From: an uncultured Phycisphaerales bacterium
Lineage (GTDB): Bacteria > Planctomycetota > Phycisphaerae > Tepidisphaerales > Tepidisphaeraceae
Reading direction: 5' to 3'
DNA length: 64,000 nucleotides
Assembly (NCBI GenBank): GCA_963771925.1
Contig: CAVYVE010000003.1
Coordinates: 30,053 to 94,052, forward strand
Below the pieces are notes generated by a model. The model did no database searches. It was not told the DNA's origin and saw only the letters and a list, made by a program, of their open reading frames with translations. The position numbers and the translations under genes are program-made. Positions 10,307 through 18,903 of this stretch are shown here, one piece after another. How positions within the stretch are numbered: the first letter of the stretch is position 1; every line of letters starts with the position of its first letter.

Positions 10307-11772
10307 ATGAATCGGCTTTCTTTCGATATCGACGCGGTGATCGAGGGCAAGAGCCGGCTCAGCGAGGCCCAGGCGCTGGAGATTTATCAGTAACGCTTCC
10401 ATGCAGGATTTGGGCTCCTGGGCGCTGGCGGCGACGCAGCGGATGCATCCCGAGGATTACCGCACTTACGTCATCGACCGGAACATCAACTACACGAATG
10501 TCTGCACGGCCAAGTGCACGTTCTGCGCTTTTCGGCGCGATCATGAGGATTCCGACGCGTACACGCTTTCGTACGAGCAGATCGGGCAGAAGATCTCGCG
10601 AACTGGTGTGCCATCGGCGGAACGCAAATCCTCATGCAGGGCGGGATGAACGACCGACTGCCGATCGAGTATTACGAGGACCTGCTGCGTTACATCAAAA
10701 GCAATTTTCCCACGATCCATATCCACGCTTTTTCGCCGCCGGAGTTCGTGGAGTTCGAGCGGTTCTTTCAAATGGACGTTCGCGACATCATCCGCCGATT
10801 GCACAAGGCGGGCCTGGACACGATCCCCGGCGGCGGAGGGGAAATCTTCGCGCCGCGCGTTCGGCGGCGGATCGGCATCGGAAAATGCACCGGCGACGAT
10901 TGGCTTCGGGTCATGCGCGTTGCGCATGAGGAGGGGATGAACACGAGTTGCACCATGCTCATCGGGCATATCGAATTCGTTCGGGAGCGGATCGAGCACA
11001 TGGCGGCGCTGCGCGATATGCAGGATTATGCGAGGGCATTGCCTATTGCCAATTGCCTATTGCCTATTGGGAAGGGCCGCAATGACGTCATTCGGCGATG
11101 TCCAGGCCCGATGGCCGGGCGTATTTGCAAAATCCGTCGCCGATTGTTCCTCAATAGGCAATAGGCAATTGGCAATTGGCAATTATACGGCCTTCATCCA
11201 CTGGCCGTTCCAGCGTGAGAACACTCCGCTGGGCCGGGCGCAGGAATGGGACCCGGACGTGCACGGCCGATTTCGATGATTCGACCAACGAGGACATTCT
11301 GCGCGGGCGGGTGGTTCGCATGGCCGGGGCGCAGGAATATCTGCGCATGCTGGGGATCGCCCGGCTGTTTTTTGACAACATCGCGTCGTTGCAAAGCAGT
11401 TGGGTGACGATGGGCCCGAAGATCGGGCAACTCGCCATGTTTTTCGGGGCCAACGACATGGGCAGCGTCATGATGGAGGAAAACGTCGTCAGCGCGGCGG
11501 GGACGACGTATCGGCTCAGCGAGCGGGAGATTTGCCGGCTCATCCGCGACGCGGGATGGGTTCCGGCCCAGCGCGATCAGTATTACAACGTGCTTCGCCG
11601 GCACGATGGAGCGGATTCGCCCGATTTGGTTCCGCTCCAGAATCCGCCGGTGAGGAATGTGAATAAAATCGATAAGAAGTTCATCGGGACGGCGCCGGGG
11701 ATGGAGGATGGGAACGATCGAAACCTGAAAATGCAGTTGCCAATTTTGGGGGGCGAGAGACCCGCTGAATGA
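10307..11772 (+). pseudogene. radical SAM menaquinone (futalosine pathway) enzyme, MqnC/MqnE family, frame-broken and interrupted by a palindromic element
   Basis: Motifs present: DRNINYTNVCTAKCTFCAF (CxxxCxxC), ILMQGGMNDRLPIEYY, HIHAFSPPE, DTIPGGGGEIF, TAFIHWPFQRENTPL, SWVTMGPKIGQLAMFFGANDMGSVMMEENVVSAAG. The pieces lie in fragments 10013-10393 (tail), 10401-10649, 10634-11164, 11028-11279 and 11176-11772, so there are at least 4 frame changes. Confidence 0.8.
11038..11184. mobile_element. MITE-like palindromic insertion (about 32-bp imperfect terminal inverted repeats around an 82-bp core)
   Basis: The left arm ATTGCCTATTGCCAATTGCCTATTGCCTATTG (11038-11069) pairs with 11152-11183 as 25 bp, one mismatch, then 6 bp. 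The core contains the perfect palindrome AATGACGTCATT (11081-11092). The element sits where MqnC/E homologues have only a few residues between LRxxQD and TAFIPW. Confidence 0.5.
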
Positions 11773-13885: not shown

Positions 13886-15200
13886 TCAGCGCGTCAGGAA
13901 TTCCGTGAAATTATCCTTGAGCAACAGTCGGACGTCGCGCTCGATGTCGGCGTTGCTTACGCGGCGGCCGGTGTCTTGCAGATCGGCGTATTTGTCGGTC
14001 AGGACCTTGGCAATAATCCGGCGGCTGTGATGCCATTTGTAAACCAATTGATCCAGAATGCGTGCGTCGGAATGCTGCGGAATAAAGCTCGTTCCGAGCA
14101 GTTCCAGGCGCATGCGCTCGATTTCTTCGATCAGGCTGGGATTGTTCAGGAACCACCAGCAGCCGAAGATCATGAGATTGCCGAATTTCCGCGCGGTGAC
14201 GCAAAGTTCGTGTTGGTTTTCGCGGGCGAGCATGGTGACGAGGAATTTGTTTGAGGGGAATTCGCGGCAAAGGTTGGCCACGGCCGCGATGTCGGCCTTG
14301 GCGGACATGTCGCCGCCGTCGCGCAGGCCCGGATTTACCCGCAGCTTTGAGCCGATCATCATGGCGAAGGGCAGGCCGCGCTCGGCGCAGACCGGCAAAA
14401 CGGCTTTTTCGAGGATGGTCTGGCCGGATTTCTCGACGGGGTCGGAGCCGCTGGGATATCGGAATTCCGGCGGAAGGCTGACGGCCAAATAAATCGCCTT
14501 CTGGCGATCGATCCACTCGCGGAGGAATCGGCGGACTTCCTCAACCGTGGCGGTGGAAATCTCGTCGGAGACCTTGAAGCCCCATTCGCCCAGCCGCTTC
14601 GCGGCGGTCGGCCACGTGCGCAGGAGCGGGTCGATCCGCAGCACGGCCTTGAATCGGGAATCGGACGCGACCGACGGATTCTTCAGCCAGCGGTTTCGCT
14701 CGTTGTCGTCGAAAACGGGATTGGTCATGGTGATCGAGGAAACGTTGCATAATTCCATGACGCGGTCGATGTATTTGCTCGGGTCCTGCTGGGCGAAAAA
14801 GGGACGATAGGCGTCGAGCGATTTTTCGTTGGGGTCGAGGCCGAGCAATTGCAGCGTCGTCAGCACGCCGCGGCAGGCTTCGCTGATGGGCGTGTGCTCG
14901 ACGAACAGATTTTTCCAGATGTGGTCGGCCTGTTGCTGTTTGGTCATCGTCCAGAACTGCTCGTAGGGAAGCGTCGTGGCAGGAACGACGCGGTACACCT
15001 CGGCGACGAGGTAGTGATACGTGACCAGTTCGTCGACGCCCCAGAGCATCAGGCCGGCCGGATCGGTCTGCGCCGGTCGAGTTGGCGACGGGCGTGCCGA
15101 AAGCCGGCGGATAAAGATGCGTGTGCATGTCGACGATGGCCTGGGCGTCGAGGGTGCGGGTGACGGTCTCGGCGAGTTGTGTGCGGGATTGGGTGTTCAT
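13886..15200 (-). CDS. glucuronate isomerase (UxaC)-like amidohydrolase, one frameshift
   Basis: The N-terminus MNTQSR...IVDMHTHLYPP is in fragment 14541-15290. The remaining 387 aa are in 13886-15049, with FGCWWFLNNPSLIEE...QHSDARILDQL resembling the UxaC C-terminal signature GSGWWFND...TDSR. Confidence 0.6.
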
Positions 15201-15364
15201 GGCGGCTCCGGTGCAAAGAGCGGCGACCTGCGGTCGCCCGCTAAGTAGTGCAATGCATATTAGAGTTGTCGGCCCGGACGGCAATGACAAAAGCAGTCAT
15301 TACTGTTATCTGAAACGCGGGCCGATTAAAATCCGCCCACTTCAAACAGCGCGAGGAGAACGCA

Positions 15365-16344
15365 ATGAGCAAGGGAATATGGGTTGTCGCGATCGTGCTG
15401 CTGCTGGGCGTGGCGGCAGCGGTGATTGTCCGAAAAGAGCAATCGCAACGGCACGGCGCTGACGATCGCCGTCATCCCCAAGGGCACGACGCATCAATAT
15501 TGGAAATCCGTTGAGGCGGGGGCGAAGGAAGCCGGCAGGGATTTGGGCGTCAACATCATTTACAAGGGATCGATGCAGGAGGATGACCGGGCCGGCCAGA
15601 TTTCCGTCGTCGAGCAGTTCGCCTCCGACAACGTGAGCGGAATCGTGCTGGCTCCGGTGGACAACGTCGCATTGGTTCCGGCCGTGCAGTCGGCGATGGC
15701 CAAGAAAATTCCCGTCGTCATCATCGACTCGTCCCTCGACGGCGAGCGCCGGCAAAGACTTTGTTTGCTATGTCGGCACGAACAACACGCTGGCCGGCAA
15801 GATGGGCGGAGAGGAACTGGCGAAACTTCTCGGCGGGAAGGGAAAGTACGTGCTGCTTCGCTATGCCGAAGGATCGGCCAGCACGATGCAGCGCGAGGCG
15901 GGGTTTCTCAGCGCGATGAAGGAAAATCCGGGGATGACGCCGCTGGTGATTAACAGATATGCCGGCACCAGCGTCAGCGAGGCAAAGGCCACGGCGCATT
16001 GAATCTGCTCGATCAGATCAGGCAGGCCGACGGGATTTTCTGCCCGAACGAATCCACGACGGTCGGGCATGCTGGACGTGCTGGAGCAAAACAATCTGGC
16101 GGGAAAGATTCATTTCGTCGGCTTCGACTGCGACGCCGAACTTGGTGGACGCGCTGAACAAAGGGAGAAATCGACGCGCTGGTGTCGCAGAATCCGACGA
16201 AGATGGCATACGAGGGCGTCAAGGCGTGCCTCGGGGCAATCCGCGGCGAGGCGCAGCCAGCCGGACATCGACAGCGGCGTGCAACTCATCACGCGGGACA
16301 ACCTCGACACGCCGGAGGTGCAGAAGCTGTTGTCGGGTGGTTGA
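15365..16344 (+). pseudogene. sugar ABC transporter substrate-binding protein (RbsB-like), at least 7 frame changes
   Basis: The signal peptide MSKGIWVVAIVLLLGVAAAV is followed by TIAVIPKGTTHQYWKSVEAGAKEAG, IVLAPVD, KIPVVIIDS, VGTNNTLAGKMGGE, LLRYAEGSASTMQREAGF, IFCPNESTTVGML, ATPNLVDALNKG, SQNPTKMAYEGV and ITRDNLDTPEVQKLL. These segments are scattered over all three frames. Confidence 0.8.
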
Positions 16345-16374
16345 TGGACATTTCTTACGAGATTTCACCGCCTG

Positions 16375-17866
16375 ATGCGAAGAGCGAAGCCGCGCCTGCG
16401 TATGGAAGGCGTGCGGAAACGATTCGGCGCGACCGTTGCGCTGGATGGGGTGGATTTATCCGTCGATTCCGGCGAGGTCTTGGCGCTGGTGGGCGAAAAC
16501 GGGGCGGGGAAAAGCACGCTGATGAAAGTTCTCTCCGGACGCACGCACCCGACGAGGGAAAAATGTGGCTGGAGGGCGGGAGTATCGGCCGCGCGATCCG
16601 CTGGAAGCGCGCCGCCGGGGCGTGGCGATGATTTATCAGGAACTGTCGCTGGCCAAGGACCTGAGCGTGATGGAGAACATTCTGCTGGGGATGGAGCCGG
16701 CGCGGGGGCCGTTTTTGCGGTGGTCGGAGATGAAACGCCGGGCGGCCGACGCGATGGCGCAGCTGGGACGGCCGGACATCGATCCGAGGATTTCGCTGGG
16801 AAAGCTTTCGCTGGCGCAGCAGCAATTGGTGGAGATCGCCCGCGCGATCTGCATCGGGTGCCGGGTGCTGGTCCTGGACGAGCCGACCAGCAGCCTGGCG
16901 CAATCGGATATCCGGCAGCTGTTTCGAACTGGTGAAGCGGCTGAAGGCCAGCGGATTGGCGATCATTTACATCTCGCATTTTCTGGAGGAAGTGCGGGAG
17001 ATTTCGGATCGGTTCACGGTCCTGCGCGACGGCAAAAGCGTCGGCGGTGGACCGACGGCGGCGACCGCGCACGGCCCAGATCATTTCCATGATGGTCGGC
17101 CGATCGGTCGATGATCTGTATCCGCGCTCGCGAGAAAGGCCGGGGAAGTGGTGCTGGAGGTCAAACATCTGGCCGGGGAATCGCAGGCCGGTCGATGCGA
17201 GCTTTTCGCTGCATCGAAGGTGAAGTCGTGGGGATTGCCGGGCTGATCGGGGCCGGACGCACCGAGCTGCTGCGCAGCATTTTCGGATTGGACCGGATCA
17301 AGAGCGGGGAGGTGCGCGATCGCGGCGTATGTCGGGCCCGCGTCGCCCGCGCGGCGATGGGCCGAGAAAGTGGGATTGCTCAGCGAAGACCGAAAAAGCG
17401 AAGGATTGGCGGTCGGTCTGAGCATCGCGGACAATCTGACGATGACGCGGCTGGGCTGGCTGGTGAATCCGACGACACAGGCGGCGCAATCGCGGCAATG
17501 GATTCAGAAGCTGCGGCATTCGCTGCCGCTCGCCGCGGCAGGCGGTGAGCGATCTGTCCGGCGGCAATCAGCAGAAGATCGCCGTCGCCCGGCTGCTGCA
17601 CCACGACGTGGACGTTTTCCTGCTGGACGAGCCGACGCGCGGCATCGACGTGGGATCCAAGGCGGAGATTTACCGGCTGATCGACGAACTGGCGTGCCGC
17701 GGCAAGGCGATCCTGATGGTCAGCAGCTATCTGCCGGAATTGCTCGGGCGTGTGCGACCGGATCGCGGTGATGTGCAAGGGCCGGCTGGTCCGGTCGGTT
17801 CCGGTGGATCAAACCAACGAACATCAGATTATGCTGGAAGCCACCGGCGCCCTGGAGACGGCATGA
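16375..17866 (+). pseudogene. sugar ABC transporter ATP-binding protein (RbsA/MglA-like, two ABC cassettes), at least 8 frame changes
   Basis: Motifs present: Walker [24 protein letters not shown], signature [14 protein letters not shown], Walker [12 protein letters not shown], a second Walker A GIAGLIGAGRTEL, a second signature [15 protein letters not shown], and [15 protein letters not shown]. Each lies in a different ORF-track fragment. Confidence 0.85.
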
Positions 17867-18903
17867 CGACCTCGCCGATACCGACGCAAACCTCCCCGCC
17901 GCCATCGCACGCCGAGTGCGCCGCCGTCCTCGGCCGAGCAGTTTTCCGACCTTCTGGGAACGATGGGGCCGATCGTGGGGCTGTTTTTCGTCTTCGCGAT
18001 CTTCGCCATTCTCGAGCCGAGAACATTTCTGACGCTGGATAACCTGCAGATCATTCTGCTGAACACGGCGGTGGTCGGCACCGCGGCGCTGGGGGCGACG
18101 GTCATCATCATCTCCGGCGGGATCGACTTGTCGGTGGGATCGAACATCGCGCTGTGCACGGTGGTCATCGCTTTGTGCCGACTGCACGGCCTGACGCCGA
18201 GCGTGGCGGCGCTGCTGCGGCATCGCCGCCGGCGCGAGCGTGGGCTTGCTCATCGGGCTGCTGGTGACGCAGTTCAATCTTTCGTCGTTCATCGTCACGC
18301 TCGGATTGTGGGGCGCGGTGCGCGGACTTGCGAAACGGCTGGCCGGCGGCAGCGAAATCTCGACCCAGCCGAGCTGGATCAGCCATCTTCTGCAAATGCT
18401 CCCGCCCGGACAGAAGTGGATGATCGTGCCGCCGGGCGTCTGGCTGCTGCTGGTCCTGAGCGTTTTCGTCGCGGCGGTGCTGCGATACACGCGGTTTGGA
18501 CGGCACGTCTTCGCCATCGGATCCAACGAACAGACCGCCCGCCTGTGCGGCGTCCCGGTCGACCAGAACCAAGCTGCTCATTTTCGTCTTCGCGACCGTC
18601 TTCGCCGGGATCGCCGGCGTGCTCCAGTTTTCCTATCTGAACAACCTCGGCGACCCCACCACCGCCAACGGATATGAACTGAACGTCATCGCCGCGGTGG
18701 TGATCGGCGGGGCAAGCCTTTCCGGCGGCAAGGGAAACATTTTCGGAACCCTCGTCGGGGCGCTGCTGATGACCATGGTGGCCAACGGATGCAACAAGAT
18801 TCCGAGCCTGACCAATGCCGATCAGGATATCGTGACCGGCGCGATCATCGTTGCGGCGGCGGGATTCGATCAGTTCCGGCAATCGCGGGGGATGGCAAAA
18901 TAG
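17863..18903 (+). pseudogene. sugar ABC transporter permease (RbsC-like), at least 3 frame changes
   Basis: The ATG at 17863 overlaps the ATPase stop (ATGA). Motifs present: GGIDLSVGS, FIVTLGLWGAVRGLA, RYTRFGRHVFAIGSNEQTARLCGVPV, VIGGASLSGGKGNIFGTLVGALLM. They lie in fragments 17963-18640, 18240-18677 and 18496-18903. Confidence 0.8.

Follow-up and report, generated by a model that had tools for sequence, protein, structure and literature searches.

The mqnC locus and its palindrome

The subject of this analysis is a palindrome inside mqnC, the gene for the radical S-adenosylmethionine (SAM) enzyme cyclic dehypoxanthinyl futalosine synthase, in an uncultured member of the Tepidisphaeraceae (Planctomycetota, Phycisphaerae, Tepidisphaerales). 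The window examined is a stretch of 64,000 nucleotides of contig CAVYVE010000003.1 (assembly GCA_963771925.1). The genome of this window is designated G000; the genomes of relatives are numbered G0xx and their loci L0xx. The family is known from soil and peat metagenomes, and the literature names Tepidisphaera and Humisphaera as cultured relatives. The features of the gene are collected in table 1.

The inverted repeat spans 147 bp (11038–11184). Its two arms of 32 nt (11038–11069 and 11152–11183) are 97% complementary, lie 82 nt apart and are both built of tandem ATTGCC(T/A) heptamers, as an initial annotation of the stretch had described. A pattern of three heptamer units finds five matches in the window, all of them at the mqnC locus, versus none in 100 shuffles. 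At −84.7 kcal/mol (z = −6.6), the predicted RNA fold of the 147-nt stretch is equalled by no shuffle. The perfect 12-nt palindrome reported for the core, AATGACGTCATT, is indeed found at 11081–11092, within the first part of the centre. No Rfam family matches the palindrome on either strand, and no Pfam family matches the insert peptide.

The insert is preceded by LRDMQDYA and followed, in the +1 frame, by NYTAFIHWPFQ. In this assembly the upstream frame ends in NRQ and a stop, while the open reading frame (ORF) 11028–11279 stays open through the insert; in these particulars too the annotation was accurate. It had further taken ATTAT, at 11025–11029 and again at 11182–11186, for a possible target-site duplication. 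Both copies exist but they are conserved codons and not a duplication: the left one stands away from the arm (table 1), and the right one varies, reading AATTAC in most of the relatives examined.

Table 1. Features of mqnC and of the palindrome that it contains, in window coordinates.
Feature	Position	Strand	Reading and evidence
mqnC (cyclic dehypoxanthinyl futalosine synthase, radical SAM)	10307..11772	+	three frames, five extra bases; best match of all fragments TIGR03699
Private +1 insertion creating TAA at 10391–10393	10390	+	absent from G009, G005 and G007; read as assembly error
Radical-SAM cluster motif CTAKCTFC (CxxxCxxC)	10503..10526	+	sequence; C65, C69 and C72 invariant in a 31-sequence alignment
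Two private +1 insertions	10598, 10608	+	comparison with three congeners; read as assembly errors
ATTAT, proposed left target-site duplication	11025..11029	+	8 nt away from the arm, in conserved codons for Asp and Tyr; no duplication
Left arm, four ATTGCC(T/A) heptamers and ATTG	11038..11069	+	read in the upstream frame as LPIANCLLPIG
Centre part 1, helix (K)GRNDVIRDVQA	11070..11108	+	helix 256–266 in the G009 model, pLDDT 84–95; dN/dS ~0.25
Private extra base in centre part 1, shifting the frame	~11094–11096	+	comparison with three congeners; read as assembly error
Centre part 2, RWPGVFAKS codons, the conserved motif of the insert	11109..11135	+	conserved across the family and in arm-less L065 (MPGVFAKS); pLDDT ~95
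Variable linker VADCS	11136..11151	+	dN/dS ~0.8
Right arm, (A/T)GGCAAT heptamers	11152..11184	+	translated SIGNRQLAIGN; 26–32 nt matches at 97–100% to intergenic hairpins C5:352448 and C5:776521
Private +1 insertion	11267	+	comparison with three congeners; read as assembly error

The insert in related genomes

Is the palindrome a recent arrival in this gene? About 45 genomes of the Tepidisphaeraceae and Tepidisphaerales were sampled (18 family-level ones from a first search, together with further loci from public collections), and every mqnC examined among them carries a homologous insert, of 126–228 nt, at the identical position. A single intact ORF of 466–502 amino acids crosses it in G009, G005, G010, G008, G002, G007, G004, G011 and G001 and at 26 further loci, and wherever the assembly is clean the insert is read through in frame. 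The initial annotation had envisaged that orthologues might carry a homologous, non-palindromic protein segment here; the homologous segment is present, yet in most relatives it is palindromic. Arms are missing from four lineages that retain the centre, namely G014, G013, G016 and L065, a deep-branching member of the Tepidisphaerales (63% identity) in which the centre reads MPGVFAKS. In other Phycisphaerae the loop at this position has 11–17 residues (11 in two, 17 in one), and Pirellulaceae and Gemmataceae have only the canonical ETGGFT (18 nt). The insert is as old as the order and not a recent hit.

In the relatives the upstream frame continues through the left arm (ALPIANCLLPIGK); the right arm is translated in the +1 frame, which is that of the downstream part of the gene. 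A typical relative reads ...LRDMQDYAKALPIANCLLPIGKSRNDVMRDVQARWPGVFAKSVFEPSSIGNRQLEIGN...YTAFIHW across the insert. Since the insert is in frame, its translation is strongly implied. From comparison with the relatives, the product would be a loop of about 48 residues that joins the helix of LRDMQDYA to the strand of YTAFIHW.

The spelling of the right arm points the same way. Three successive AGGCAAT units contain TAG in every frame, and the intergenic copies described below do contain such runs. In mqnC the third unit of the right arm carries a T, which gives CAA TTG where an A would create an in-frame TAG; in all the relatives compared, the unit that would yield CAA TAG carries T or C. In this respect the right arm appears to show the mark of translation.

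Two details concern the ends of the insert. In G009 (L002, 2380–2410) the right end has GCAATTCCACCA twice, read as NSTSNSTGN, and in G001 (L012) it has an extra SPNSQLVTS block; the arm and junction region can, it seems, expand by whole-codon steps through short tandem duplications. In the short-read genome G006 (PMAK01000028; L018 and L075) the mqnC insert is just 80 nt long with NN between the arms. Its palindrome was seemingly collapsed or scaffolded across, so that the lack of a centre in this assembly is technical.

Structure of the enzyme and selection on the insert

The intact MqnC of G009 scores 435.5 bits against TIGR03699, above the equivalog cut-off of 428.1, and the profile match is interrupted at residue 242 by the insert. 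Its AlphaFold model has a mean predicted local distance difference test score (pLDDT) of 78.9 and a predicted template-modelling (TM) score (pTM) of 0.83. The best match of the model in the PDB is MqnE (6xig), at a TM score of 0.80 on the target, and the model qualifies as a TIM barrel. Within the insert the left arm is modelled as coil (pLDDT 76–84). In the centre a helix leads into WPGVF (~95); the right arm is disordered (44).

Two other extensions of the protein were seen. The region 11600–11772 encodes a conserved C-terminal tail of about 55 residues (...DSPDL..PPVR.V..IDK.FIGAAPG...KVQLPILGG) that extends beyond where the TIGR03699 profile stops; it is common to the family and to the order, L065 included, and has pLDDT below 50 in the model. 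At about 11225–11300 (EWDPDVHG..DDSTNEDILRGRVVRMAG), between NTPLGRA and EYLRML, lies an extension, not palindromic, that adds about 25 residues compared with the MqnC of Pirellulaceae and Gemmataceae, some form of which is present in all Phycisphaerae examined.

How does selection act on the parts of the insert? Rates of non-synonymous (dN) and synonymous (dS) change were measured among six species sharing arms of the ATTGCC type (type A; table 2). The low dN/dS of RWPGVFAKS and of the helix before it implies that the centre is constrained as protein. The low dS of the arms implies, by contrast, that these are constrained or homogenized as DNA, and between arm types no amino-acid sequence is conserved in them. 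The centre is thus a genuine piece of protein, a short helix and RWPGVFAKS, under purifying selection and confidently modelled. Translational bypass or an intein-like removal of the insert was considered and is ruled out by this protein-level selection. Of the two outcomes that the initial annotation had offered, that of an element tolerated or translated as a surface loop is borne out by the intact clean orthologues, which run across a homologous palindromic insert, and by the purifying selection on its centre.

Table 2. Substitution rates in parts of mqnC among six species with type-A arms.
Region	dN	dS	dN/dS
Rest of gene	~0.06	1.08	0.05
RWPGVFAKS	0.13	1.31	~0.1
Helix before motif	0.30	1.2	~0.25
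Linker after motif	0.70	0.87	~0.8
Arms	0.10–0.14	0.37–0.42	~0.3

Frame breaks in the assembly

If the insert is read through in the relatives, why is the frame of mqnC broken in G000? Private indels of G000 were scored by alignment with three congeners, G009, G005 and G007. Each of the five frame breaks of mqnC is a +1 insertion; none reflects a base change into a stop codon. Because the upstream frame serves the left arm and the downstream frame the right arm, the insert of G000 has a single defect of its own, the extra base near 11095. An indel near 11030, which the initial annotation had invoked, is not needed; the frames of the relatives place the extra base in the centre.

As a measure of the background, private indels of 1–2 nt were counted in 5 kb of unrelated genes (window 13890–18900). 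The few-contig assemblies have 18 (G000, five contigs, marker completeness 59%) and 26 (G007, seven contigs), as against 3 and 5 in the short-read assemblies of G009 and G005, respectively. At five indels in 1.4 kb, mqnC equals the assembly background of about 3.6 per kb, and for this reason, together with the comparison with relatives, the five extra bases are read as long-read assembly errors. The 18 private indels of window 13890–18900 (including 15365–18903) are mostly +1 insertions, and a 'degraded' sugar ABC operon there shows the same density as the background; its state most likely reflects errors of assembly rather than decay of the genes.

What would the loss of mqnC mean for the cell? 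Two PF02621 genes (MqnA/MqnD) are present in G000 and its relatives, and no MenD scores above the cut-off in the nine genomes searched. No classical men pathway was thus found as a backup, and the futalosine pathway is the only menaquinone route detected; mqnC, which lies on it, is presumably essential. No second intact mqnC was found in G000, where the sole other match is a more distant radical-SAM paralogue. The radical-SAM paralogue at C2:26039–27109 is probably mqnE, and its split over three frames is consistent with assembly noise.

The initial annotation had also considered that a mobile element inactivates the gene, in which case mqnC would be a decaying pseudogene in the source organism and the palindrome would have contributed to or accompanied its inactivation. 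Five frame-breaking insertions within 1.4 kb, a higher density than that of the nearest flanks, could be so interpreted, as could the like condition of the MqnE-like paralogue. But unrelated genes of the window, and the few-contig G007, show the same rate, which short-read relatives do not; the five breaks are uniformly +1 insertions, with no in-frame stops and with protein conservation otherwise high; every functional orthologue has the insert; and no classical men pathway was found that might replace the futalosine route. We regard inactivation as very improbable.

Hairpin repeat families in the genome

Are the arms peculiar to mqnC? The genome-wide search for which the initial annotation had called did find the arm sequence elsewhere. 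In G000 about ten further loci contain it in the form of short hairpins, each consisting of 2–4 heptamers, a loop of 10–20 nt and the inverse. The matches to the mqnC arms reach 26–32 nt at 97–100%, and the likeness does not stop at the heptamers but includes the inner stem (...CTATTGGAAG / CTTCCTCAATAG...). Only the arms recur: neither the 82-nt centre nor any full-length copy of the element was found elsewhere in G000. Read as protein the arms are loose linkers; as DNA they are copies of intergenic heptamer-array hairpins.

G000 has 114 heptamer-array loci belonging to at least five families (TTGTCAT/TGGTCAT, TAGTGGT, TTTCGGA, CTAGAGA and ATTGCCW), and two or more arrays, usually inverted pairs, occur at 35 of the 114. 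The commonest family is TTGTCAT/TGGTCAT, exemplified by C1:575226–575333, C5:75007–75101 and C5:476016–476092. The cleaner assembly of G009 yielded 16 heptamer loci in the 397 kb examined; almost all of these contain stops whichever frame is read, so that the mqnC copy is an unusual in-frame member. In-frame copies number 0–1 among these 16 loci, none of them clear, and no convincing one was found among the 114 of G000.

What might move such repeats? Genes for Y1 transposases (PF01797) occur in all five genomes searched, yet at the 10 loci read the nearest 1.5 kb or so is free of heptamer arrays. Mobilization of the RAYT type (REP-associated tyrosine transposase; REP, repetitive extragenic palindrome) was rejected on this ground, the Y1 transposases being present but not beside arrays. 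G000 itself has eight PF01797 matches, including three tandem Y1 genes of the IS200/IS605 type, about 1.5 kb apart and with identical scores (C1:792686–796126); the two G000 loci read, those of the best match and of the first tandem copy, adjoin no heptamer array. A PF05635 four-helix-bundle gene beside the arrays was sought by tblastn (with an approximate consensus) and by a scan for the NIAEG motif, and none was found in G000, a noisy and 59% complete assembly, or in the sampled loci. A search of G000 for gene cassettes between inverted arrays 200–1500 nt apart returned just infA and a gene-less stretch.

Two observations on the families stand apart. At C2:133520–133934 a complete TTGTCAT-type hairpin element stands on either side of the infA gene (IF-1). 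At C1:841100–841330 two TTGTCAT-type arrays enclose a palindromic repeat of another, GC-rich kind (CCCCTCGCCCC...GGGGAGAGGG / CCCTCTCCCC...GGGGCGAGGGG), which represents a further repeat class.

Turnover of the arms across lineages

The centre of the insert persists, but its arms are spelled differently from one lineage to the next. At least 10 arm heptamers were found, among them ATTGCCW, GATTGCC, AGTTGCG, AGTTGCC, AGTAGGC, GTCAGTT, TTGTCCG, GGGTTCA, CAGCGTT and GGATGAA. Clear arrays comprise about four units each and begin 11–12 nt past the Tyr codon. Between the two arms, 30–46 base pairs, nearly all of them Watson–Crick (~6% G-U), can form in about 25 of 39 lineages.

Does the spelling of the arms follow the repeats of the genome? 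Three units of the mqnC arm heptamer of each of five genomes, with two mismatches allowed, were counted in all five (table 3). Each genome contains its own arm family, and in four of the five the count is highest in the genome whose arm supplied the heptamer. Arrays of AGTTGCG number 40–204 in the four genomes with such arms and are absent from G009, G005, G007 and G000; they also occur, 7–96 times, in three genomes whose mqnC arms are of another type. In G033 an odd order of units, AGTAGGC-AGCGGGC-AGTAGGC, is common to mqnC and to dozens of intergenic copies.

Table 3. Arrays of three units of each mqnC arm heptamer (two mismatches allowed) counted in five genomes.
Heptamer (source of arm)	G031	G032	G033	G034	G035
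GATTGCC (G031)	62	0	13	2	0
AGTTGCC (G032)	0	364	49	0	0
AGTAGGC (G033)	51	36	85	0	0
GGGTTCA (G034)	0	194	77	23	0
GTTGTCC (G035)	0	3	0	0	64

The change of arms appears to be episodic, in discrete steps. Between G010 and G002 the flanks are 95.6% identical, and the arms 84% and 66%; between G000 and G009 the flanks are 85–90% identical and the left arm 100%. Hybrid alleles, with left and right arms unrelated to one another, occur in G002 and G017, and the right arm of G002 has a junction (ACTTCCCCCGGC) in common with type-B mqnC alleles.

Two explanations compete here with a copying of repeats into the gene. The hairpin might itself be the selected feature, as an RNA or DNA structure that serves as a processing or stability site or as a translational pause tuning MqnC, so that selection and not copying maintains the complementarity. 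Its very stable predicted stem would fit such a role, as would the persistence of pairing through at least 10 spellings and the synonymous sites of the arms, about three times more conserved than those of the rest of the gene. But about one-third of the lineages have lost the stem and nonetheless have an intact gene, the arms of the hybrid alleles do not pair, and the near-exclusive use of Watson–Crick pairs is what copying of DNA would give. The arms are, moreover, ordinary members of intergenic families that are palindromic everywhere, and the palindrome is without an Rfam match. A selected hairpin thus seems to us decidedly unlikely.

The second possibility is a hotspot: the centre would be an older, ordinary protein insertion on both sides of which heptamer arrays were inserted independently and repeatedly in different lineages. 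This would account for the four arm-less lineages that keep the centre, for sister lineages that differ in arm type and for the hybrid alleles. Independent one-sided insertions are, however, hard to reconcile with a start always 11–12 nt past the Tyr codon, with about four units where these are clear and with inversion on both sides; nor was a single-armed state seen, save the hybrids, which have two arms. We consider such repeated insertion unlikely.

Origin and maintenance of the palindrome

The reading that we hold with considerable confidence is that the palindrome is an old in-frame insert whose centre is constrained protein and whose arms belong to the hairpin repeats of the genome, and that the frame breaks of mqnC in G000 are assembly errors. 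How could the arms change while the frame is kept? In discrete events they would be repeatedly overwritten, either by ectopic gene conversion from intergenic hairpins of the resident family or by recombination with other mqnC alleles. Copying from arm to arm would then maintain their complementarity, in the manner of template switching at quasipalindromes, an established process, and selection would retain only versions that are free of stops and of a length divisible by three. Selection for such open, in-phase versions implies that the enzyme is functional and that the insert is a tolerated, partly co-opted loop. Taken whole, the case for overwriting is in our judgement finely balanced.

Several observations weigh against this account. 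Arm complementarity is lost in about one-third of the lineages. In one of the five tests of table 3, that of GGGTTCA from G034, the genome's own count is not the highest. The junction shared by G002 with type-B alleles suggests, for that event, allelic recombination rather than ectopic conversion. In a 4.4-kb alignment the insertions are denser in mqnC than in its immediate flanks (one in about 3 kb), a faint hint of local decay of the mqnC region. Finally, neither a mobilizing enzyme nor a donor event was seen for the presumed overwriting.

A bolder proposal, which we put forward tentatively and think possible rather than probable, is that heptamer hairpins form a class of replicator of their own, able to overwrite resident copies in place. 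The active family would re-spell both mqnC arms by structure- or microhomology-guided copying, leaving the frame intact in a presumably essential gene; the centre may be a co-opted remnant of the first element, and the loop a datable record of successive families back to the origin of the order.

What follows from the more conservative reading? A likely mis-annotation is corrected: mqnC is not a pseudogene here, and loss of menaquinone synthesis ought not to be inferred from this or similarly noisy long-read genomes. The locus is also a natural example, outside Rickettsia and in a free-living soil lineage, of selfish-looking palindromic DNA turned into a permanent and partly functional part of a presumably essential enzyme. 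Since a single fixed site has been occupied since the origin of the order by at least 10 successive arm spellings that mirror the repeat repertoires, it can be used to test how heptamer hairpins spread and are homogenized.

Comparison with known systems

To what class of element does the palindrome belong? The initial annotation called it MITE-like (miniature inverted-repeat transposable element). The terminal inverted repeats, 32-nt arms at 97%, agree with that description, and the arms do belong to a genome-wide hairpin family; however, there is no flush target-site duplication, no further full-length copies were found, the 82-nt centre is unique in the genome and the insert is old.

The Rickettsia palindromic elements (RPEs; summarised in PMC10969869) are of about 100–150 bp, lie in frame in genes of housekeeping enzymes and encode a peptide of 30–50 residues. 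They are conserved among related species, are thought to occupy the protein surface and occur as whole elements with a conserved peptide in dozens of unrelated genes (PMC10969869). Like them, the mqnC palindrome is in frame, is kept in orthologues and adds a translated peptide to a housekeeping enzyme. Unlike them, it has arms that alone are repeated, a unique centre and few in-frame copies; its arms are tandem heptamers whose spelling varies by species while the centre stays, and its host is a free-living soil planctomycete.

Intragenic REPs tagged with GTAG or CGTC (PMC3733652) are mostly extragenic, occasionally lie within ORFs and are then read as amino acids; in recB of Xanthomonas, different REPs occupy about the same site in two species (PMC3733652). 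The hairpins of G000 resemble REPs in being short, mostly extragenic, present in tens to hundreds per genome and often in inverted pairs. The ATTGCC(T/A) arms, on the other hand, have no GTAG or CGTC tag, do not flank Y1 genes and are heptamer arrays around a protein-constrained centre. In the REPIN–RAYT system (PMC3116915), inverted doublets of short repeats form hairpins, and their sequence populations within a genome shift over time; the units here are heptamer arrays instead, and no association with a RAYT was found.

The heptanucleotide repeats of cyanobacteria (short tandemly repeated repetitive sequences, STRR) and of Beggiatoaceae (TAACTGA) are abundant intergenic tandem heptamers with lineage-specific spellings, arranged mainly as direct arrays upstream of genes (PMC4679880). 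Some of the arm spellings found here (CAACTGA, GTCAGTT) resemble theirs, but the present arrays are inverted pairs that form hairpins, and one of them is embedded in frame in an enzyme.

No published description of such elements in Planctomycetes or in mqnC was found. By analogy, the mqnC palindrome appears to work like an RPE or an intragenic REP, its nearest known counterparts, although it belongs to neither group. To these systems the present case adds a protein-constrained centre, a deficit of synonymous change in the arms and an arm spelling that tracks the repeat repertoire of each genome.

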